From Escherichia phage T7, in the sequence record MZ375256.1: 37,111 nt of DNA; one strand, written 5' to 3'. The notes beneath the pieces are model-generated. The model was not told the DNA's origin, made no database searches, and saw only the letters and a program-made list of their open reading frames with translations. A program made the translations under genes and the position numbers. Below are positions 1,259-36,819 of this stretch, piece by piece; position 1 is the stretch's first letter; the number at the start of each line of letters is the position of its first letter.

Positions 1259-1389
1259 TGTCTACTACCAACGTGCAATACGGTCTGACCGCTCAAACTG
1301 TACTTTTCTATAGCGACATGGGGCGGCGTGGCATAGACGAAAGGAAAAGGTTAAAGCCAAGAAACTCGCCGCACTTGAACAGGCACTAG
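1258..1389 (+). pseudogene. 0.4: 43-codon fusion ORF: gene 0.4 N-terminus joined to residual 3' sequence of the 0.6 region
   Basis: ATG overlaps ocr stop (taATG); first 21 codons read [21 protein letters not shown] as in gp0.4, then unrelated tail; genes 0.5/0.6 absent. Confidence 0.55.
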
Positions 1390-7427: not shown

Positions 7428-8009
7428 TGGGACTGTTAGATGGTGAAGCCTGGGAAAAAGAAAACCCGCCAGTACAAGCAACTGGGTGTATAGCTTGCTT
7501 AGAGAAAGATGACCGTTATCCACACACCTGTAACAAAGGAGCTAACGATATGACCGAACGTGAACAAGAGATGATCATTAAGTTGATAGACAATAATGAA
7601 GGTCGCCCAGATGATTTGAATGGCTGCGGTATTCTCTGCTCCAATGTCCCTTGCCACCTCTGCCCCGCAAATAACGATCAAAAGATAACCTTAGGTGAAA
7701 TCCGAGCGATGGACCCACGTAAACCACATCTGAATAAACCTGAGGTAACTCCTACAGATGACCAGCCTTCCGCTGAGACAATCGAAGGTGTCACTAAGCC
7801 TTCCCACTACATGCTGTTTGACGACATTGAGGCTATCGAAGTGATTGCTCGTTCAATGACCGTTGAGCAGTTCAAGGGATACTGCTTCGGTAACATCTTA
7901 AAGTACAGACTACGTGCTGGTAAGAAGTCAGAGTTAGCGTACTTAGAGAAAGACCTAGCGAAAGCAGACTTCTATAAAGAACTCTTTGAGAAACATAAGG
8001 ATAAATGTT

Positions 8010-8017: not shown

Positions 8018-8350
<333 letters not shown>

Positions 8351-8373: not shown

Positions 8374-8418
8374 GACTCCCTCTGAGAAACCAAACGAAAC
8401 CTAAAGGAGATTAACATT

Positions 8419-9117
8419 ATGGCTAAGAAGATTTTCACCTCTGCGCTGGGTACCGCTGAACCTTACGCTTACATCGCCAAGCCGGACTACGGCAACGAAG
8501 AGCGTGGCTTTGGGAACCCTCGTGGTGTCTATAAAGTTGACCTGACTATTCCCAACAAAGACCCGCGCTGCCAGCGTATGGTCGATGAAATCGTGAAGTG
8601 TCACGAAGAGGCTTATGCTGCTGCCGTTGAGGAATACGAAGCTAATCCACCTGCTGTAGCTCGTGGTAAGAAACCGCTGAAACCGTATGAGGGTGACATG
8701 CCGTTCTTCGATAACGGTGACGGTACGACTACCTTTAAGTTCAAATGCTACGCGTCTTTCCAAGACAAGAAGACCAAAGAGACCAAGCACATCAATCTGG
8801 TTGTGGTTGACTCAAAAGGTAAGAAGATGGAAGACGTTCCGATTATCGGTGGTGGCTCTAAGCTGAAAGTTAAATATTCTCTGGTTCCATACAAGTGGAA
8901 CACTGCTGTAGGTGCGAGCGTTAAGCTGCAACTGGAATCCGTGATGCTGGTCGAACTGGCTACCTTTGGTGGCGGTGAAGACGATTGGGCTGACGAAGTT
9001 GAAGAGAACGGCTATGTTGCCTCTGGTTCTGCCAAAGCGAGCAAACCACGCGACGAAGAAAGCTGGGACGAAGACGACGAAGAGTCCGAGGAAGCAGACG
9101 AAGACGGAGACTTCTAA
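8419..9117 (+). CDS. 2.5: Single-stranded DNA-binding protein
   Basis: 232-aa ORF with acidic C-terminal tail ...DEDDEESEEADEDGDF. Confidence 0.95.
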   Translation: MAKKIFTSALGTAEPYAYIAKPDYGNEERGFGNPRGVYKVDLTIPNKDPRCQRMVDEIVKCHEEAYAAAVEEYEANPPAVARGKKPLKPYEGDMPFFDNGDGTTTFKFKCYASFQDKKTKETKHINLVVVDSKGKKMEDVPIIGGGSKLKVKYSLVPYKWNTAVGASVKLQLESVMLVELATFGGGEDDWADEVEENGYVASGSAKASKPRDEESWDEDDEESEEADEDGDF

Positions 9118-9537
9118 GTGGAACTGCGGGAGAAAATCCTTGAGCGAATCAAGGTGACTTCCTCTGGGTGTTGGGAGTGGCAGGGCGCTACGAACAATAA
9201 AGGGTACGGGCAGGTGTGGTGCAGCAATACCGGAAAGGTTGTCTACTGTCATCGCGTAATGTCTAATGCTCCGAAAGGTTCTACCGTCCTGCACTCCTGT
9301 GATAATCCATTATGTTGTAACCCTGAACACCGTTCCATAGGAACTCCAAAAGAGAACTCCACTGACATGGTAAATAAGGGTCGCTCACACAAGGGGTATA
9401 AACTTTCAGACGAAGACGTAATGGCAATCATGGAGTCCAGCGAGTCCAATGTATCCTTAGCTCGCACCTATGGTGTCTCCCAACAGACTATTTGTGATAT
9501 ACGCAAAGGGAGGCGACATGGCAGGTTACGGCGCTAA
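9118..9537 (+). CDS. 2.8: HNH endonuclease-family protein
   Basis: 139-aa ORF with GTG start; Cys/His motif CHRVMSN...HSCDNPLCCNPEH; clear paralog of the 17460-17852 ORF. Confidence 0.85.
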   Translation: MELREKILERIKVTSSGCWEWQGATNNKGYGQVWCSNTGKVVYCHRVMSNAPKGSTVLHSCDNPLCCNPEHRSIGTPKENSTDMVNKGRSHKGYKLSDEDVMAIMESSESNVSLARTYGVSQQTICDIRKGRRHGRLRR

Positions 9538-9967
9538 AGGAATCCGAAAGGTTGGAGCGTTTCGCTCTGGCCTAGAGGACAAGGTTTCAAAGCAGTTGGA
9601 ATCAAAAGGTATTAAATTCGAGTATGAAGAGTGGAAAGTGCCTTATGTAATTCCGGCGAGCAATCACACTTACACTCCAGACTTCTTACTTCCAAACGGT
9701 ATATTCGTTGAGACAAAGGGTCTGTGGGAAAGCGATGATAGAAAGAAGCACTTATTAATTAGGGAGCAGCACCCCGAGCTAGACATCCGTATTGTCTTCT
9801 CAAGCTCACGTACTAAGTTATACAAAGGTTCTCCAACGTCTTATGGAGAGTTCTGCGAAAAGCATGGTATTAAGTTCGCTGATAAACTGATACCTGCTGA
9901 GTGGATAAAGGAACCCAAGAAGGAGGTCCCCTTTGATAGATTAAAAAGGAAAGGAGGAAAGAAATAA
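9518..9967 (+). CDS. 3: Endonuclease I (Holliday junction resolvase)
   Basis: 149-aa ORF from MAGYGAKGIRK. Confidence 0.9.
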   Translation: MAGYGAKGIRKVGAFRSGLEDKVSKQLESKGIKFEYEEWKVPYVIPASNHTYTPDFLLPNGIFVETKGLWESDDRKKHLLIREQHPELDIRIVFSSSRTKLYKGSPTSYGEFCEKHGIKFADKLIPAEWIKEPKKEVPFDRLKRKGGKK

Positions 9968-10422
9968 TGGCTCGTGTACAGTTTAAACAACGTGAATCTA
10001 CTGACGCAATCTTTGTTCACTGCTCGGCTACCAAGCCAAGTCAGAATGTTGGTGTCCGTGAGATTCGCCAGTGGCACAAAGAGCAGGGTTGGCTCGATGT
10101 GGGATACCACTTTATCATCAAGCGAGACGGTACTGTGGAGGCAGGACGAGATGAGATGGCTGTAGGCTCTCACGCTAAGGGTTACAACCACAACTCTATC
10201 GGCGTCTGCCTTGTTGGTGGTATCGACGATAAAGGTAAGTTCGACGCTAACTTTACGCCAGCCCAAATGCAATCCCTTCGCTCACTGCTTGTCACACTGC
10301 TGGCTAAGTACGAAGGCGCTGTGCTTCGCGCCCATCATGAGGTGGCGCCGAAGGCTTGCCCTTCGTTCGACCTTAAGCGTTGGTGGGAGAAGAACGAACT
10401 GGTCACTTCTGACCGTGGATAA
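9967..10422 (+). CDS. 3.5: Lysozyme (N-acetylmuramoyl-L-alanine amidase) and RNAP inhibitor
   Basis: 151-aa ORF. Confidence 0.95.
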   Translation: MARVQFKQRESTDAIFVHCSATKPSQNVGVREIRQWHKEQGWLDVGYHFIIKRDGTVEAGRDEMAVGSHAKGYNHNSIGVCLVGGIDDKGKFDANFTPAQMQSLRSLLVTLLAKYEGAVLRAHHEVAPKACPSFDLKRWWEKNELVTSDRG

Positions 10423-12234
<1,812 letters not shown>

Positions 12235-12302
12235 CAGGATTCTTGACAGTTGTTTCATATGAAGAGATTGTTAAGTCACGATAATCAATAGGAGAAATCA
12301 AT

Positions 12303-14417
12303 ATGATCGTTTCTGACATCGAAGCTAACGCCCTCTTAGAGAGCGTCACTAAGTTCCACTGCGGGGTTATCTACGACTACTCCACCGCTGAGTACGTAAG
12401 CTACCGTCCGAGTGACTTCGGTGCGTATCTGGATGCGCTGGAAGCCGAGGTTGCACGAGGCGGTCTTATTGTGTTCCACAACGGTCACAAGTATGACGTT
12501 CCTGCATTGACCAAACTGGCAAAGTTGCAATTGAACCGAGAGTTCCACCTTCCTCGTGAGAACTGTATTGACACCCTTGTGTTGTCACGTTTGATTCATT
12601 TCAACCTCAAGGACACCGATATGGGTCTTCTGCGTTCCGGCAAGTTGCCCGGAAAACGCTTTGGGTCTCACGCTTTGGAGGCGTGGGGTTATCGCTTAGG
12701 CGAGATGAAGGGTGAATACAAAGACGACTTTAAGCGTATGCTTGAAGAGCAGGGTGAAGAATACGTTGACGGAATGGAGTGGTGGAACTTCAACGAAGAG
12801 ATGATGGACTATAACGTTCAGGACGTTGTGGTAACTAAAGCTCTCCTTGAGAAGCTACTCTCTGACAAACATTACTTCCCTCCTGAGATTGACTTTACGG
12901 ACGTAGGATACACTACGTTCTGGTCAGAATCCCTTGAGGCCGTTGACATTGAACATCGTGCTGCATGGCTGCTCGCTAAACAAGAGCGCAACGGGTTCCC
13001 GTTTGACACAAAAGCAATCGAAGAGTTGTACGTAGAGTTAGCTGCTCGCCGCTCTGAGTTGCTCCGTAAATTGACCGAAACGTTCGGCTCGTGGTATCAG
13101 CCTAAAGGTGGCACTGAGATGTTCTGCCATCCGCGAACAGGTAAGCCACTACCTAAATACCCTCGCATTAAGACACCTAAAGTTGGTGGTATCTTTAAGA
13201 AGCCTAAGAACAAGGCACAGCGAGAAGGCCGTGAGCCTTGCGAACTTGATACCCGCGAGTACGTTGCTGGTGCTCCTTACACCCCAGTTGAACATGTTGT
13301 GTTTAACCCTTCGTCTCGTGACCACATTCAGAAGAAACTCCAAGAGGCTGGGTGGGTCCCGACCAAGTACACCGATAAGGGTGCTCCTGTGGTGGACGAT
13401 GAGGTACTCGAAGGAGTACGTGTAGATGACCCTGAGAAGCAAGCCGCTATCGACCTCATTAAAGAGTACTTGATGATTCAGAAGCGAATCGGACAGTCTG
13501 CTGAGGGAGACACAGCATGGCTTCGTTATGTTGCTGAGGATGGTAAGATTCATGGTTCTGTTAACCCTAATGGAGCAGTTACGGGTCGTGCGACCCATGC
13601 GTTCCCAAACCTTGCGCAAATTCCGGGTGTACGTTCTCCTTATGGAGAGCAGTGTCGCGCTGCTTTTGGCGCTGAGCACCATTTGGATGGGATAACTGGT
13701 AAGCCTTGGGTTCAGGCTGGCATCGACGCATCCGGTCTTGAGCTACGCTGCTTGGCTCACTTCATGGCTCGCTTTGATAACGGCGAGTACGCTCACGAGA
13801 TTCTTAACGGCGACATCCACACTAAGAACCAGATAGCTGCTGAACTACCTACCCGAGATAACGCTAAGACGTTCATCTATGGGTTCCTCTATGGTGCTGG
13901 TGATGAGAAGATTGGACAGATTGTTGGTGCTGGTAAAGAGCGCGGTAAGGAACTCAAGAAGAAATTCCTTGAGAACACCCCCGCGATTGCAGCACTCCGC
14001 GAGTCTATCCAACAGACACTTGTCGAGTCCTCTCAATGGGTAGCTGGTGAGCAACAAGTCAAGTGGAAACGCCGCTGGATTAAAGGTCTGGATGGTCGTA
14101 AGGTACACGTTCGTAGTCCTCACGCTGCCTTGAATACCCTACTGCAATCTGCTGGTGCTCTCATCTGCAAACTGTGGATTATCAAGACCGAAGAGATGCT
14201 CGTAGAGAAAGGCTTGAAGCATGGCTGGGATGGGGACTTTGCGTACATGGCATGGGTACATGATGAAATCCAAGTAGGCTGCCGTACCGAAGAGATTGCT
14301 CAGGTGGTCATTGAGACCGCACAAGAAGCGATGCGCTGGGTTGGAGACCACTGGAACTTCCGGTGTCTTCTGGATACCGAAGGTAAGATGGGTCCTAATT
14401 GGGCGATTTGCCACTGA
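12303..14417 (+). CDS. 5: DNA polymerase
   Basis: 704-aa ORF, family A polymerase with 3'-5' exonuclease domain. Confidence 0.98.
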
Positions 14418-14462
14418 TACAGGAGGCTACTCCAAAGGCATAAAACTATAGGAGAAATTATT

Positions 14463-14762
14463 ATGGCTATGACAAAGAAATTTAAAGTGTCCTTCGACGT
14501 TACCGCAAAGATGTCGTCTGACGTTCAGGCAATCTTAGAGAAAGATATGCTGCATCTATGTAAGCAGGTCGGCTCAGGTGCGATTGTCCCCAATGGTAAA
14601 CAGAAGGAAATGATTGTCCAGTTCCTGACACACGGTATGGAAGGATTGATGACATTCGTAGTACGTACATCATTTCGTGAGGCCATTAAGGACATGCACG
14701 AAGAGTATGCAGATAAGGACTCTTTCAAACAATCTCCTGCAACAGTACGGGAGGTGTTCTGA
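14463..14762 (+). CDS. 5.5: Gp5.5, H-NS binding protein
   Basis: 99-aa ORF. Confidence 0.9.
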   Translation: MAMTKKFKVSFDVTAKMSSDVQAILEKDMLHLCKQVGSGAIVPNGKQKEMIVQFLTHGMEGLMTFVVRTSFREAIKDMHEEYADKDSFKQSPATVREVF

Positions 14763-14971
14763 TGTCTGACTACCTGAAAGTGCTGCAAGCAATCAAAAGT
14801 TGCCCTAAGACTTTCCAGTCCAACTATGTACGGAACAATGCGAGCCTCGTAGCGGAGGCCGCTTCCCGTGGTCACATCTCGTGCCTGACTACTAGTGGAC
14901 GTAACGGTGGCGCTTGGGAAATCACTGCTTCCGGTACTCGCTTTCTGAAACGAATGGGAGGATGTGTCTAA
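14762..14971 (+). CDS. 5.7: Gp5.7
   Basis: 69-aa ORF. Confidence 0.85.
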   Translation: MSDYLKVLQAIKSCPKTFQSNYVRNNASLVAEAASRGHISCLTTSGRNGGAWEITASGTRFLKRMGGCV

Positions 14972-15129
14972 TGTCTCGTGACCTTGTGACTATTCCACGC
15001 GATGTGTGGAACGATATACAGGGCTACATCGACTCTCTGGAACGTGAGAACGATAGCCTTAAGAATCAACTAATGGAAGCTGACGAATACGTAGCGGAAC
15101 TAGAGGAGAAACTTAATGGCACTTCTTGA
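14971..15129 (+). CDS. 5.9: Gp5.9, RecBCD inhibitor
   Basis: 52-codon ORF MSRDLVTIPRDVWNDIQGYIDSLERENDSLKNQLMEADEYVAELEEKLNGTS. Confidence 0.8.
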   Translation: MSRDLVTIPRDVWNDIQGYIDSLERENDSLKNQLMEADEYVAELEEKLNGTS

Positions 15130-16018
15130 CCTTAAACAATTCTATGAGTTACGTGAAGGCTGCGACGACAAGGGTATCCTTGTGATGGACGGCGACTGGC
15201 TGGTCTTCCAAGCTATGAGTGCTGCTGAGTTTGATGCCTCTTGGGAGGAAGAGATTTGGCACCGATGCTGTGACCACGCTAAGGCCCGTCAGATTCTTGA
15301 GGATTCCATTAAGTCCTACGAGACCCGTAAGAAGGCTTGGGCAGGTGCTCCAATTGTCCTTGCGTTCACCGATAGTGTTAACTGGCGTAAAGAACTGGTT
15401 GACCCGAACTATAAGGCTAACCGTAAGGCCGTGAAGAAACCTGTAGGGTACTTTGAGTTCCTTGATGCTCTCTTTGAGCGCGAAGAGTTCTATTGCATCC
15501 GTGAGCCTATGCTTGAGGGTGATGACGTTATGGGAGTTATTGCTTCCAATCCGTCTGCCTTCGGTGCTCGTAAGGCTGTAATCATCTCTTGCGATAAGGA
15601 CTTTAAGACCATCCCTAACTGTGACTTCCTGTGGTGTACCACTGGTAACATCCTGACTCAGACCGAAGAGTCCGCTGACTGGTGGCACCTCTTCCAGACC
15701 ATCAAGGGTGACATCACTGATGGTTACTCAGGGATTGCTGGATGGGGTGATACCGCCGAGGACTTCTTGAATAACCCGTTCATAACCGAGCCTAAAACGT
15801 CTGTGCTTAAGTCCGGTAAGAACAAAGGCCAAGAGGTTACTAAATGGGTTAAACGCGACCCTGAGCCTCATGAGACGCTTTGGGACTGCATTAAGTCCAT
15901 TGGCGCGAAGGCTGGTATGACCGAAGAGGATATTATCAAGCAGGGCCAAATGGCTCGAATCCTACGGTTCAACGAGTACAACTTTATTGACAAGGAGATT
16001 TACCTGTGGAGACCGTAG
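15116..16018 (+). CDS. 6: 5'-3' exonuclease
   Basis: 300-aa ORF. Confidence 0.95.
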   Translation: MALLDLKQFYELREGCDDKGILVMDGDWLVFQAMSAAEFDASWEEEIWHRCCDHAKARQILEDSIKSYETRKKAWAGAPIVLAFTDSVNWRKELVDPNYKANRKAVKKPVGYFEFLDALFEREEFYCIREPMLEGDDVMGVIASNPSAFGARKAVIISCDKDFKTIPNCDFLWCTTGNILTQTEESADWWHLFQTIKGDITDGYSGIAGWGDTAEDFLNNPFITEPKTSVLKSGKNKGQEVTKWVKRDPEPHETLWDCIKSIGAKAGMTEEDIIKQGQMARILRFNEYNFIDKEIYLWRP

Positions 16019-16119
16019 CGTATATTGGTCTGGGTCTTTGTGTTCTCGGAGTGTGCCTCATTTCGTGGGGCCTTTGGGACTTAGCCAGAATAATCAAGTC
16101 GTTACACGACACTAAGTGA
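16006..16119 (+). CDS. 6.3: Gp6.3 small protein
   Basis: 37-codon ORF with GTG start, overlapping the gene 6 end. Confidence 0.55.
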   Translation: METVAYIGLGLCVLGVCLISWGLWDLARIIKSLHDTK

Positions 16120-16139
16120 TAAACTCAAGGTCCCTAAAT

Positions 16140-16162
16140 TAATACGACTCACTATAGGGAGA
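16140..16162 (+). promoter_or_regulatory. T7 promoter phi6.5 (class III consensus)
   Basis: taatacgactcactatagggaga; flanked by the R6.5 hairpin arms actcaaggtccc ... ggggcctttacgat. Confidence 0.9.
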
Positions 16163-16216
16163 TAGGGGCCTTTACGATTATTACTTTAAGATTTAACTCT
16201 AAGAGGAATCTTTATT

Positions 16217-16471
16217 ATGTTAACACCTATTAACCAATTACTTAAGAACCCTAACGATATTCCAGATGTACCTCGTGCAACCGCTGAGTATCTACAGGTT
16301 CGATTCAACTATGCGTACCTCGAAGCGTCTGGTCATATAGGACTTATGCGTGCTAATGGTTGTAGTGAGGCCCACATCTTGGGTTTCATTCAGGGCCTAC
16401 AGTATGCCTCTAACGTCATTGACGAGATTGAGTTACGCAAGGAACAACTAAGAGATGATGGGGAGGATTGA
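16217..16471 (+). CDS. 6.5: Gp6.5
   Basis: 84-aa ORF. Confidence 0.85.
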
Positions 16472-16475
16472 CACT

Positions 16476-16742
16476 ATGTGTTTCTCACCGAAAATTAAAA
16501 CTCCGAAGATGGATACCAATCAGATTCGAGCCGTTGAGCCAGCGCCTCTGACCCAAGAAGTGTCAAGCGTGGAGTTCGGTGGGTCTTCTGATGAGACGGA
16601 TACCGAGGGCACCGAAGTGTCTGGACGCAAAGGCCTCAAGGTCGAACGTGATGATTCCGTAGCGAAGTCTAAAGCCAGCGGCAATGGCTCCGCTCGTATG
16701 AAATCTTCCATCCGTAAGTCCGCATTTGGAGGTAAGAAGTGA
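16476..16742 (+). CDS. 6.7: Gp6.7 virion protein
   Basis: 88-aa ORF from MCFSPKIKTPK. Confidence 0.85.
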   Translation: MCFSPKIKTPKMDTNQIRAVEPAPLTQEVSSVEFGGSSDETDTEGTEVSGRKGLKVERDDSVAKSKASGNGSARMKSSIRKSAFGGKK

Positions 16743-17143
16743 TGTCTGAGTTCACATGTGTGGAGGCTAAGAGTCGCTTCCGTGCAATCCGGTGGACTGT
16801 GGAACACCTTGGGTTGCCTAAAGGATTCGAAGGACACTTTGTGGGCTACAGCCTCTACGTAGACGAAGTGATGGACATGTCTGGTTGCCGTGAAGAGTAC
16901 ATTCTGGACTCTACCGGAAAACATGTAGCGTACTTCGCGTGGTGCGTAAGCTGTGACATTCACCACAAAGGAGACATTCTGGATGTAACGTCCGTTGTCA
17001 TTAATCCTGAGGCAGACTCTAAGGGCTTACAGCGATTCCTAGCGAAACGCTTTAAGTACCTTGCGGAACTCCACGATTGCGATTGGGTGTCTCGTTGTAA
17101 GCATGAAGGCGAGACAATGCGTGTATACTTTAAGGAGGTATAA
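16742..17143 (+). CDS. 7: Gp7 virion/host-range protein
   Basis: 133-aa ORF. Confidence 0.85.
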   Translation: MSEFTCVEAKSRFRAIRWTVEHLGLPKGFEGHFVGYSLYVDEVMDMSGCREEYILDSTGKHVAYFAWCVSCDIHHKGDILDVTSVVINPEADSKGLQRFLAKRFKYLAELHDCDWVSRCKHEGETMRVYFKEV

Positions 17144-17146
17144 GTT

Positions 17147-17446
17147 ATGGGTAAGAAAGTTAAGAAGGCCGTGAAGAAAGTCCCCAAGTCCGTTAAGAAA
17201 GTCGTTAAGGAAGGGGCTAGTCCGGTTAAACAGGTTGCTGGCGGTCTAGCTGGTCTGGCTGGTGGTACTGGTGAAGCACAGATGGTGGAAGTACCACAAG
17301 CTGCCGCACAGATTGTTGACGTACCTGAGAAAGAGGTTTCCACTGAGGACGAAGCACAGACAGAAAGCGGACGCAAGAAAGCTCGTGCTGGCGGTAAGAA
17401 ATCCTTGAGTGTAGCCCGTAGCTCCGGTGGCGGTATCAACATTTAA
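17147..17446 (+). CDS. 7.3: Gp7.3 tail-associated protein
   Basis: 99-aa ORF, Lys/Val-rich N-terminus. Confidence 0.9.
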   Translation: MGKKVKKAVKKVPKSVKKVVKEGASPVKQVAGGLAGLAGGTGEAQMVEVPQAAAQIVDVPEKEVSTEDEAQTESGRKKARAGGKKSLSVARSSGGGINI

Positions 17447-17459
17447 TCAGGAGGTTATC

Positions 17460-17852
17460 GTGGAAGACTGCATTGAATGGACCGGAGGTGTCAACTCTAA
17501 GGGTTATGGTCGTAAGTGGGTTAATGGTAAACTTGTGACTCCACATAGGCACATCTATGAGGAGACATATGGTCCAGTTCCAACAGGAATTGTGGTGATG
17601 CATATCTGCGATAACCCTAGGTGCTATAACATAAAGCACCTTACGCTTGGAACTCCAAAGGATAATTCCGAGGACATGGTTACCAAAGGTAGACAGGCTA
17701 AAGGAGAGGAACTAAGCAAGAAACTTACAGAGTCAGACGTTCTCGCTATACGCTCTTCAACCTTAAGCCACCGCTCCTTAGGAGAACTGTATGGAGTCAG
17801 TCAATCAACCATAACGCGAATACTACAGCGTAAGACATGGAGACACATTTAA
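17460..17852 (+). CDS. 7.7: HNH endonuclease-family protein
   Basis: 130-aa ORF with GTG start after RBS aggagg; motif HICDNPRCYNIKH; paralog of the 9118-9537 ORF. Confidence 0.85.
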   Translation: MEDCIEWTGGVNSKGYGRKWVNGKLVTPHRHIYEETYGPVPTGIVVMHICDNPRCYNIKHLTLGTPKDNSEDMVTKGRQAKGEELSKKLTESDVLAIRSSTLSHRSLGELYGVSQSTITRILQRKTWRHI

Positions 17853-19462
17853 TGGCTGAGAAACGAACAGGACTTGCGGAGGATGGCGCAAAGTCTGTCT
17901 ATGAGCGTTTAAAGAACGACCGTGCTCCCTATGAGACACGCGCTCAGAATTGCGCTCAATATACCATCCCATCATTGTTCCCTAAGGACTCCGATAACGC
18001 CTCTACAGATTATCAAACTCCGTGGCAAGCCGTGGGCGCTCGTGGTCTGAACAATCTAGCCTCTAAGCTCATGCTGGCTCTATTCCCTATGCAGACTTGG
18101 ATGCGACTTACTATATCTGAATATGAAGCAAAGCAGTTACTGAGCGACCCCGATGGACTCGCTAAGGTCGATGAGGGCCTCTCGATGGTAGAGCGTATCA
18201 TCATGAACTACATTGAGTCTAACAGTTACCGCGTGACTCTCTTTGAGGCTCTCAAACAGTTAGTCGTAGCTGGTAACGTCCTGCTGTACCTACCGGAACC
18301 GGAAGGGTCAAACTATAATCCCATGAAGCTGTACCGATTGTCTTCTTATGTGGTCCAACGAGACGCATTCGGCAACGTTCTGCAAATGGTGACTCGTGAC
18401 CAGATAGCTTTTGGTGCTCTCCCTGAGGACATCCGTAAGGCTGTAGAAGGTCAAGGTGGTGAGAAGAAAGCTGATGAGACAATCGACGTGTACACTCACA
18501 TCTATCTGGATGAGGACTCAGGTGAATACCTCCGATACGAAGAGGTCGAGGGTATGGAAGTCCAAGGCTCCGATGGGACTTATCCTAAAGAGGCTTGCCC
18601 ATACATCCCGATTCGGATGGTCAGACTAGATGGTGAATCCTACGGTCGTTCGTACATTGAGGAATACTTAGGTGACTTACGGTCCCTTGAAAATCTCCAA
18701 GAGGCTATCGTCAAGATGTCCATGATTAGCTCTAAGGTTATCGGCTTAGTGAATCCTGCTGGTATCACCCAGCCACGCCGACTGACCAAAGCTCAGACTG
18801 GTGACTTCGTTACTGGTCGTCCAGAAGACATCTCGTTCCTCCAACTGGAGAAGCAAGCAGACTTTACTGTAGCTAAAGCCGTAAGTGACGCTATCGAGGC
18901 TCGCCTTTCGTTTGCCTTTATGTTGAACTCTGCGGTTCAGCGTACAGGTGAACGTGTGACCGCCGAAGAGATTCGGTATGTAGCTTCTGAACTTGAAGAT
19001 ACTTTAGGTGGTGTCTACTCTATCCTTTCTCAAGAATTACAATTGCCTCTGGTACGAGTGCTCTTGAAGCAACTACAAGCCACGCAACAGATTCCTGAGT
19101 TACCTAAGGAAGCCGTAGAGCCAACCATTAGTACAGGTCTGGAAGCAATTGGTCGAGGACAAGACCTTGATAAGCTGGAGCGGTGTGTCACTGCGTGGGC
19201 TGCACTGGCACCTATGCGGGACGACCCTGATATTAACCTTGCGATGATTAAGTTACGTATTGCCAACGCTATCGGTATTGACACTTCTGGTATTCTACTC
19301 ACCGAAGAACAGAAGCAACAGAAGATGGCCCAACAGTCTATGCAAATGGGTATGGATAATGGTGCTGCTGCGCTGGCTCAAGGTATGGCTGCACAAGCTA
19401 CAGCTTCACCTGAGGCTATGGCTGCTGCCGCTGATTCCGTAGGTTTACAGCCGGGAATTTAA
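17852..19462 (+). CDS. 8: Portal (head-tail connector) protein
   Basis: 536-aa ORF from MAEKRTGLAEDGAK. Confidence 0.95.
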   Translation: MAEKRTGLAEDGAKSVYERLKNDRAPYETRAQNCAQYTIPSLFPKDSDNASTDYQTPWQAVGARGLNNLASKLMLALFPMQTWMRLTISEYEAKQLLSDPDGLAKVDEGLSMVERIIMNYIESNSYRVTLFEALKQLVVAGNVLLYLPEPEGSNYNPMKLYRLSSYVVQRDAFGNVLQMVTRDQIAFGALPEDIRKAVEGQGGEKKADETIDVYTHIYLDEDSGEYLRYEEVEGMEVQGSDGTYPKEACPYIPIRMVRLDGESYGRSYIEEYLGDLRSLENLQEAIVKMSMISSKVIGLVNPAGITQPRRLTKAQTGDFVTGRPEDISFLQLEKQADFTVAKAVSDAIEARLSFAFMLNSAVQRTGERVTAEEIRYVASELEDTLGGVYSILSQELQLPLVRVLLKQLQATQQIPELPKEAVEPTISTGLEAIGRGQDLDKLERCVTAWAALAPMRDDPDINLAMIKLRIANAIGIDTSGILLTEEQKQQKMAQQSMQMGMDNGAAALAQGMAAQATASPEAMAAAADSVGLQPGI

Positions 19463-19561: not shown

Positions 19562-20485
19562 ATGGCTGAATCTAATGCAGACGTATATGCATCTTTTGGC
19601 GTGAACTCCGCTGTGATGTCTGGTGGTTCCGTTGAGGAACATGAGCAGAACATGCTGGCTCTTGATGTTGCTGCCCGTGATGGCGATGATGCAATCGAGT
19701 TAGCGTCAGACGAAGTGGAAACAGAACGTGACCTGTATGACAACTCTGACCCGTTCGGTCAAGAGGATGACGAAGGCCGCATTCAGGTTCGTATCGGTGA
19801 TGGCTCTGAGCCGACCGATGTGGACACTGGAGAAGAAGGCGTTGAGGGCACCGAAGGTTCCGAAGAGTTTACCCCACTGGGCGAGACTCCAGAAGAACTG
19901 GTAGCTGCCTCTGAGCAACTTGGTGAGCACGAAGAGGGCTTCCAAGAGATGATTAACATTGCTGCTGAGCGTGGCATGAGTGTCGAGACCATTGAGGCTA
20001 TCCAGCGTGAGTACGAGGAGAACGAAGAGTTGTCCGCCGAGTCCTACGCTAAGCTGGCTGAAATTGGCTACACGAAGGCTTTCATTGACTCGTATATCCG
20101 TGGTCAAGAAGCTCTGGTGGAGCAGTACGTAAACAGTGTCATTGAGTACGCTGGTGGTCGTGAACGTTTTGATGCACTGTATAACCACCTTGAGACGCAC
20201 AACCCTGAGGCTGCACAGTCGCTGGATAATGCGTTGACCAATCGTGACTTAGCGACCGTTAAGGCTATCATCAACTTGGCTGGTGAGTCTCGCGCTAAGG
20301 CGTTCGGTCGTAAGCCAACTCGTAGTGTGACTAATCGTGCTATTCCGGCTAAACCTCAGGCTACCAAGCGTGAAGGCTTTGCGGACCGTAGCGAGATGAT
20401 TAAAGCTATGAGTGACCCTCGGTATCGCACAGATGCCAACTATCGTCGTCAAGTCGAACAGAAAGTAATCGATTCGAACTTCTGA
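19562..20485 (+). CDS. 9: Capsid assembly scaffolding protein
   Basis: 307-aa highly acidic ORF. Confidence 0.95.
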   Translation: MAESNADVYASFGVNSAVMSGGSVEEHEQNMLALDVAARDGDDAIELASDEVETERDLYDNSDPFGQEDDEGRIQVRIGDGSEPTDVDTGEEGVEGTEGSEEFTPLGETPEELVAASEQLGEHEEGFQEMINIAAERGMSVETIEAIQREYEENEELSAESYAKLAEIGYTKAFIDSYIRGQEALVEQYVNSVIEYAGGRERFDALYNHLETHNPEAAQSLDNALTNRDLATVKAIINLAGESRAKAFGRKPTRSVTNRAIPAKPQATKREGFADRSEMIKAMSDPRYRTDANYRRQVEQKVIDSNF

Positions 20486-34528: not shown

Positions 34529-34786
34529 ATGCTAGAATTTTTACGTAAGCTAATCCCTTGGGTTCTCGCTGGGATGCTATTCGGGTTAGGATGGCATCTA
34601 GGGTCAGACTCAATGGACGCTAAATGGAAACAGGAGGTACACAATGAGTACGTTAAGAGAGTTGAGCCCAGAAGGGTGACGCATGGATTCGTGCGTTACA
34701 GGATACTATTCGTGAACTGCAACGTAAGTAGGAAATCAAGTAAGGAGGCAATGTGTCTACTCAATCCAATCGTAATGCGCTCGTAG
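34529..34786 (+). pseudogene. 18.5: Truncated and frameshifted i-spanin gene 18.5 (Rz-like); embedded o-spanin gene 18.7 (Rz1-like) reduced to an 11-codon stub at 34644-34679
   Basis: First 46 codons MLEFLRKLIPWVLAGMLFGLGWHLGSDSMDAKWKQEVHNEYVKRVE match gp18.5, then an out-of-frame tail PRRVTHGFVRYRILF... running into gene 19; about 229 bp missing relative to the canonical 143-aa gene. Confidence 0.75.
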
Positions 34787-36771: not shown

Positions 36772-36819
36772 ATGTTCCGCTTATTGTTGAACCTACTGCG
36801 GCATAGAGTCAAGTCCTAA
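36772..36819 (+). pseudogene. 19.5: Gene 19.5 truncated to 15 codons
   Basis: RBS gggaggag then ATG; reads MFRLLLNLLRHRVKS* whereas the canonical gene is about 49 codons; size accounting implies about 189 bp missing here. Confidence 0.5.

Follow-up and report, generated by a model that had tools for sequence, protein, structure and literature searches.

The retention of two paralogous genes of predicted HNH endonucleases, 2.8 and 7.7, in a T7 genome that has lost genes 3.8 and 5.3 is very probably a by-product of pooled CRISPR deletion and not a sign of indispensability of the retained genes. The DNA analysed here (the window, 37,111 nt, the whole of record MZ375256.1) is the complete genome of a genome-reduced laboratory deletion mutant of phage T7 from the CiPGr series (PMC9825161). 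Comparison of window positions 8400-18400 with GenBank phage records by megablast revealed 99.9-100% identity to records entitled 'Mutant Escherichia phage T7 clone T7_xxx', and the block of matching clones (MZ375246-MZ375293 and OL9647xx) originates from the CiPGr work of Yuan et al. (NAR 2022, PMC9825161), who propagated T7 for up to 300 passages on E. coli with SpCas9 and a pooled plasmid library, in which each plasmid carried one guide and a template of 2 x 50 bp homology designed for a single-gene deletion, and the targets comprised every T7 gene except the known essential ones. Cas9-escape mutations are reported there as a class, and some removable genes, described as 'quasi-essential', were seen deleted only at a frequency of <5%; 3.7% of the cassettes of the library were undetected. 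The list of genes deleted or disrupted includes gp7.7, and the 'disrupted' list includes gp2.5 (PMC9825161).

The deletions listed in Table 1 were mapped by aligning the complete window with wild-type T7 (V01146, 39,937 bp). Two of them, those of 4.2-4.7 (~1 kb; window 12221-12246) and of 0.4-0.6 (~0.56 kb; window 1321-1332), have their junctions at overlaps of imperfect direct repeats of 26 nt and 12 nt, respectively, and are spontaneous, repeat-mediated events rather than designed ones. Both losses fit the 'unplanned large fragments' described as lost in the CiPGr experiment (PMC9825161). The deletion in the 18.5/18.7 region (a lambda Rz-like lysis gene with an ORF nested inside it) is 230 bp long and out of frame (window about 34663-34666), and 18.5 is kept in the sibling clones T7_150L and T7_250L. 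Gene 19.5 is mostly gone as a result of a deletion of ~180 bp at window about 36803-36811; in the T7-B chassis study, the deletion of 19.5 alone led to much smaller plaques. The left terminal repeat has an 18-bp deletion (WT 99-116, window about 97), with a matching gap in the right repeat at about 37068. This left-end deletion is common to the siblings T7_150L and T7_250L, and the first 400 nt of the window contain a few further differences from V01146. The terminal differences might stem from polymorphism of the phage stock or from sequence assembly.

Table 1. Coordinates of the genes, junctions and deletions discussed in the text (window, MZ375256.1; WT, wild-type T7, V01146).
Feature	Coordinates	Sequence	Strand	Remarks
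Gene 2.8, 139 aa, predicted HNH (His-Me finger) endonuclease with C-terminal helix-turn-helix	9118..9537	window	+	BLASTP, PHROG, Pfam, AlphaFold, Foldseek
TA>GT dinucleotide substitution, L72R	9332..9333	window	+	difference from V01146; affects the CCNPEH-L motif in the gp2.8 core
Gene 3 (endonuclease I)	9518..9967	window	+	start and RBS (GGGAGG) within the last 30 nt of 2.8
Remnant of gene 3.8	10486..10533	window	+	first 10 codons, then 6 codons of the former 3' sequence of 3.8, in frame to the 4A ATG
Junction of the 5.3 deletion	14432..14433	window	.	designed; RBS of 5.3 adjoins the 3'-terminal 19 nt of 5.3 with the RBS of 5.5
Gene 7.7, 130 aa, predicted HNH endonuclease, paralogue of 2.8	17460..17852	window	+	Pfam, PHROG, BLASTP
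Deletion	about 1353-1915	WT		genes 0.4 (3' end), 0.5 and 0.6
Deletion	7608-7763	WT		gene 1.4 exactly
Deletion	about 11254-11545	WT		internal to gene 3.8, ~290 bp
Deletion	about 13278-14298	WT		genes 4.2 (3' end), 4.3, 4.5 and 4.7
Deletion	16483-16820	WT		gene 5.3, from ATG to 19 nt before the gene end
Deletion	about 37055-37284	WT		genes 18.5/18.7
Deletion	about 39429-39608	WT		gene 19.5

The coordinates and the GTG start codons given for 2.8 and 7.7 in an earlier note, made from the sequence of the window, were confirmed by our analysis. The GTG codon of 2.8 comes immediately after the TAA codon of gene 2.5. In the case of 7.7, the GTG codon is preceded, at a distance of 5 nt, by the Shine-Dalgarno sequence AGGAGG (17449-17454), and a longer 7.7 ORF that starts at 17427 has no Shine-Dalgarno sequence of such kind. 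As pointed out in the earlier note, 2.8 overlaps gene 3 and 7.7 abuts gene 8: the former overlap amounts to 20 nt (window 9518-9537) and the latter to one base, as 7.7 ends with the A of the ATG codon of gene 8, which has its RBS inside 7.7. Positions, GTG starts and overlaps of both genes are unchanged as compared to wild-type T7. The product of 7.7 is identical to its wild-type counterpart (NP_041994, 'HNH endonuclease'), whereas that of 2.8 differs from the wild-type protein (NP_041971, 'endonuclease') by one residue, L72R.

The amino acid sequences of gp2.8 and gp7.7 are 47% identical over 134 columns (BLASTP, E=2e-35), or 49% identical (E=3e-36) when the annotated 130-aa form of gp7.7 is used, and all motifs of the shared scaffold that had been noticed by eye are present in the alignment. 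This degree of similarity indicates that 2.8 and 7.7 are true paralogues. A search of 5.8 billion proteins revealed 47 relatives, and those of the matches that are named or lie on long contigs represent T7-like phage genomes. In phage 13a, a diverged HNH gene of the 7.7 type is present at the same locus, despite the lack of a megablast match over 7.7; hence, the 7.7 locus is not simply empty in relatives.

The results of profile searches and structure prediction point to the membership of gp2.8 and gp7.7 in the His-Me finger (HNH_3) superfamily, as small, free-standing predicted endonucleases. When compared with the Pfam HNH_3 model (PF13392, cut-off 24.8 bits), gp7.7 scored 49.6 bits (E=3e-13) and wild-type gp2.8 scored 26.1 bits, which is narrowly above the cut-off, while the score of gp2.8 of the window, with its L72R substitution, was 17.6 bits and fell below it. 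Wild-type gp2.8 scored also 26.2 bits with the zf-His_Me_endon model (PF05551), just under the cut-off of 27 bits. Both proteins matched PHROG 59, 'HNH endonuclease' (E=5e-27 for gp2.8 and E=3e-33 for gp7.7); a search of NCBIfam yielded no model for gp2.8, gp7.7, gp3.8 or gp5.3. In an alignment of 45 homologues, H59, C66, H71, and N80 (gp2.8 numbering here and below) are invariant, and C18, W19, E20, G29, Y30, H45, R46, C61, D62, N63, C67, N68, P69, L72, T76, D83, and R89 are at least 90% conserved. The residues H59 and N80, which correspond to H48 and N69 of gp7.7, are 21 residues apart and align with the relevant H and N of I-HmuI and I-PpoI.

These two homing endonucleases were reached among PDB sequences only with the use of the 45-sequence profile, as single-sequence phmmer searches of PDB sequences with gp2.8 and gp7.7 as queries returned nothing meaningful. 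The profile matched I-HmuI (1u3e) with E=3e-5 (profile positions 26-139, a stretch that takes in the C-terminal helix-turn-helix) and I-PpoI with E of about 1e-3 over the core, with H-x-C-x4-C-x4-H-L...N in register. We take the I-PpoI residues at the aligned positions to be the general base (His98), the metal-binding Asn119 and, from the first zinc site, three ligands out of four (C100, C105, and H110). The AlphaFold model of gp2.8 of the window (pLDDT 89.6) comprises N-terminal strands, a beta-beta-alpha unit (56-59, 72-75, and 77-86) and three C-terminal helices (98-129). A Foldseek search of the PDB with this model indicated I-HmuI 1u3e as the best match (probability 0.99) and I-PpoI at ranks 2-5, although the E-values were modest (4.5e-3). 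There were also sub-threshold helix-turn-helix matches in Pfam, and the profile had weak matches to helix-turn-helix proteins. Taken together with the Pfam results, the profile matches and the predicted structure back the 'HNH/zinc-finger homing-endonuclease-like' fold that had been proposed for these proteins by inspection.

By analogy with the two homing endonucleases, the working parts of gp2.8 and gp7.7 may be proposed as follows. A beta region at the N terminus, with C-W-E-W and GYG, would precede a beta-beta-alpha-metal core, in which His59 of gp2.8 (His48 of gp7.7) would serve as a general base activating water and Asn80 (Asn69) would hold a divalent metal. The residues C18, C61, C66, and H71 of gp2.8 (C4, C50, C55, and H60 of gp7.7) would form a zinc-stabilised finger, with spacing exactly as in the first zinc site of I-PpoI. 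The three C-terminal helices, with their helix-turn-helix, would provide DNA anchoring or site recognition, as in I-HmuI. The latter enzyme, from Bacillus phage SPO1, resembles the T7 proteins in the HNH_3 family assignment and in the combination of a nuclease core with a C-terminal helix-turn-helix. However, its core has no Cys/His zinc ligands and contains residues of the D-x4-N-x4-N type where gp2.8 has C-x4-C-x4-H, and it is encoded by an intron, whereas the genes 2.8 and 7.7 are free-standing and shorter. In the case of I-PpoI, a His-Cys box enzyme of Physarum (1a73/1cz0), the register of the core is identical to that of gp2.8 and gp7.7, but the second zinc motif and the dimerisation tail of this enzyme are absent from the T7 proteins, which carry the C-terminal helix-turn-helix instead. 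Also the origins differ, as I-PpoI comes from a eukaryotic nuclear intron and gp2.8 and gp7.7 from a bacteriophage.

Genes 3.8 and 5.3 had been regarded as the two other members of the same family, cleanly removed from this genome. Their clean loss is borne out by comparison with V01146, and the family assignment stands in the case of 3.8, though for its core only, and fails in the case of 5.3. The wild-type gp3.8 protein scored 56 bits with Pfam HNH_3, and its similarity to gp7.7 (BLASTP, E=5e-11) and gp2.8 (E=4e-7) extends only across the core of ~50 residues; an hhalign comparison with the 2.8/7.7 profile gave a probability of 94% over 48 columns. It shares with gp2.8 and gp7.7 the HNH_3 family and the distance of 22 residues between H and N of the core, but differs from them in having no cysteines, in belonging to PHROG 4578 instead of 59 and in a distinct C-terminal half. 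The junction of the 3.8 deletion is located at about 10512-10514, and the promoter and RBS of 3.8 remain. The remnant reading frame predicts a 3.8-4A fusion, namely, a primase/helicase with 16 extra N-terminal residues, beside the normal 4A; in GenBank records of siblings, the 582-aa form is annotated.

The product of 5.3 (WT 16483-16839), described in RefSeq as a 'hypothetical protein', contains a D...QVK motif and scored 42.1 bits with Pfam PDDEXK_5 (cut-off 26.1). BLASTP detected no match of gp5.3 to gp2.8, gp7.7, or gp3.8, and its hhalign probability against the 2.8/7.7 profile was 0.08%. The best match of gp5.3 among PDB sequences was 2ost (E=0.013, residues 5-97, nearly the full length of gp5.3), which we take to be I-Ssp6803I, a PD-(D/E)XK homing endonuclease. 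Judging from these matches, gp5.3 does not belong to the HNH family; it is most plausibly a PD-(D/E)XK protein resembling I-Ssp6803I and may be a homing-endonuclease-like protein of another fold. Like 2.8 and 7.7, gene 5.3 is small, phage-encoded, non-essential, located between essential genes and specifies a nuclease-like protein, but the fold of this protein is unrelated to theirs. The paralogy of 2.8 and 7.7, the core match of 3.8 and the lack of a match of 5.3 together reduce the HNH genes of T7 to three, plus one unrelated nuclease-like gene. This number agrees with that in a recent preprint, in which 2.8, 3.8, and 7.7 are named as the three homing endonucleases of T7, by homology only (10.1101/2025.09.07.674715).

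The L72R substitution in gp2.8 appeared in the course of the CRISPR experiment: the clone from transfer 10, T7_10L, does not have it, and an exact 44-nt probe of the mutant sequence matched 39 records, all from the CiPGr mutant series. Assuming that the accessions follow the order of passage, with two clones per 10 transfers, L72R occurs in one clone each at about transfers 30 and 120 and in all clones from about transfer 140 on. The changed bases are located 6-7 nt from an AGG PAM, and the affected leucine, one of the residues conserved in at least 90% of the homologues, aligns with the HL of I-PpoI. The substitution probably weakens or cripples gp2.8, as suggested by this conservation and by the fall of the HNH_3 score, and it is probably a Cas9-escape mutation. 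Since ~77% of the positions of gene 2.8 lie either in an NGG PAM or no more than 8 nt from one, the proximity to a PAM and its seed region is by itself weak evidence for escape, and hitch-hiking of L72R with another sweep is possible.

Changes in other genes of this series were also noticed. Gene 7.3 has two substitutions, at window positions 17183 and 17219 (WT 19571 A>C and 19607 C>A), which are common to the window, T7_150L and T7_250L and not present in T7_10L; either escape or adaptation may have given rise to them in this targeted but undeleted gene. In the T7_250L record (MZ375281), gene 2.5 differs by G>T at position 8335 (WT 9734), and its CDS is annotated as 579 vs. 699 nt. Judged from this position, codon 193 is affected and would become a stop codon, with the loss of the C-terminal 40 residues. 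The acidic tail of gp2.5, which lies within these residues, is generally regarded as essential.

The suggestion that the removal of 2.8 and 7.7 was prevented by their overlaps with the neighbouring genes is refuted by phages that lack them. Gene 7.7 is missing in at least four plaque-purified sibling clones (MZ375281, i.e., T7_250L, MZ375289, MZ375290, and OL964749), in which the match ends exactly at the base before the 7.7 start. In T7_250L, the deletion covers WT 19848-20216 and leaves the last 24 nt of the gene with the RBS of gene 8. The downstream RBS is spared in all of the designed deletions of 5.3, 3.8, and 7.7, which implies that an overlap of this kind is no barrier to deletion. The T7-B chassis, constructed in an independent study, is devoid of 0.4-0.7, 1.4, 1.7, 3.8, 4.3-4.7, 5.3, and 7.7, and forms plaques of wild-type size, with a burst of 197 vs. 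224. Moreover, T7 from which 2.8, then 7.7 and then 3.8 were removed by recombination is viable and forms plaques in numbers similar to those of the wild type (10.1101/2025.09.07.674715). Both 2.8 and 7.7 are, therefore, non-essential accessory or selfish genes. The evolved T7 lines of the Bull laboratory (AY264775/6), which we suspected of lacking 7.7, turned out to retain it. In the case of 2.8, no T7 record without this gene was found in the phage collection: the 2.8 probe had 113 matches vs. 114 of the gene 3 control probe, and the breakdown of the matches by organism was identical but for one Aeromonas phage. Thus, 2.8 is deleted in none of the sequenced CiPGr isolates of this collection, which leaves room for a real cost of its loss under the conditions of that experiment.

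How, then, could 2.8 and 7.7 have remained in a genome that lost 3.8 and 5.3? Two answers were considered in the earlier note, and the one that was offered there as the alternative, a coincidental loss, proves to be essentially right. In a pooled library, the designed deletions would be gained in a random, lineage-specific order, and those of 2.8 and 7.7 would simply not have been picked up by the lineage of the window, which carries in 2.8 a two-base change, probably in a protospacer seed, in place of the deletion. Assuming that ~14 of the 28 removable genes were lost per clone, the deletion of exactly two of any four chosen genes is the modal outcome (P=0.40), so that the observed pattern is what would be expected as a by-product of the deletions that this lineage had gained. 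The time course of sequenced clones is also on record: deletions of 3.8 and 5.3 are present by about transfer 150, and that of 7.7 is seen solely in late sibling lineages. The other answer, that the deletions were aimed at dispensable selfish endonucleases and that 2.8 and 7.7 survived since their overlaps with genes 3 and 8 forbid deletion, is extremely improbable. It could draw on the location of the gene 3 RBS and the first 20 nt of gene 3 inside 2.8, on that of the gene 8 RBS inside 7.7 and on the presence of 2.8 in all sequenced T7 records of the phage collection. However, the aim that it presumes is not borne out, as the library covered all genes not known to be essential and most of the genes lost encode proteins other than endonucleases. 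The barrier that it presumes is at odds with the sparing of downstream RBS by the designed deletions, with the absence of 7.7 from plaque-purified siblings and from the healthy T7-B chassis, and with the viability of the phage that lacks 2.8 in addition to 7.7 and 3.8.

A by-product of pooled deletion remains our preferred explanation also when 2.8 is considered separately. One might argue that this gene was kept since its deletion costs fitness, so that deletion mutants were rare (<5%) and escape by point mutation was favoured, the retention of 7.7 still being a matter of chance. Such a cost could possibly arise if gene 3 were no longer translationally coupled to 2.5 by way of 2.8, or if a useful activity of gp2.8 were lost. 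Such an explanation would account for the lack of 2.8 deletions among the sequenced mutants of the collection, in which deletions of 3.8, 5.3, and 7.7 do occur, and for the double substitution in the seed region of 2.8 in the lineage of the window. It would be also in line with the tight packing of 2.8 between the 2.5 stop codon and the gene 3 start, with the class of removable genes deleted only at low frequency in the CiPGr study (PMC9825161), and with the omission of 2.8 from the genes removed in the later, CiPGr-guided T7-B work. Against it speak the plaque numbers of T7 without 2.8, which elsewhere were comparable to those of the wild type (10.1101/2025.09.07.674715), and the L72R substitution itself: as it affects a nearly invariant residue of the core and takes 8.5 bits off the HNH_3 score, it argues that the activity of gp2.8 was not under strong selection here. 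Additionally, with a pooled library that supplies each cell with a single guide, selection per target is weak, so the missing 2.8 deletion may be due to chance or, given the undetected cassettes, to a poor one. On balance, we find a fitness cost of 2.8 loss an unlikely reason for its retention. Similarly doubtful is a variant of this explanation in which the reading frame of 2.8 is needed in cis, as a coupling bridge from 2.5 to gene 3, and the nuclease activity is expendable or costly. If it were true, the experiment would have selected in L72R an escape mutation that preserves the ORF and kills the activity.

The identity of 2.8 and 7.7, their HNH nature, and their dispensability were already annotated or published, and the genome in which they were noticed is an engineered one. 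What our analysis adds is a correction of the number of T7 HNH genes, which is three (2.8, 3.8, and 7.7) and not four, together with the recognition of gp5.3 as a probable PD-(D/E)XK protein like the homing endonuclease I-Ssp6803I. The copy of 2.8 retained here is probably a crippled Cas9-escape allele, which calls for caution when such phages are used as chassis or when the essentiality of T7 genes is deduced from reduced genomes.
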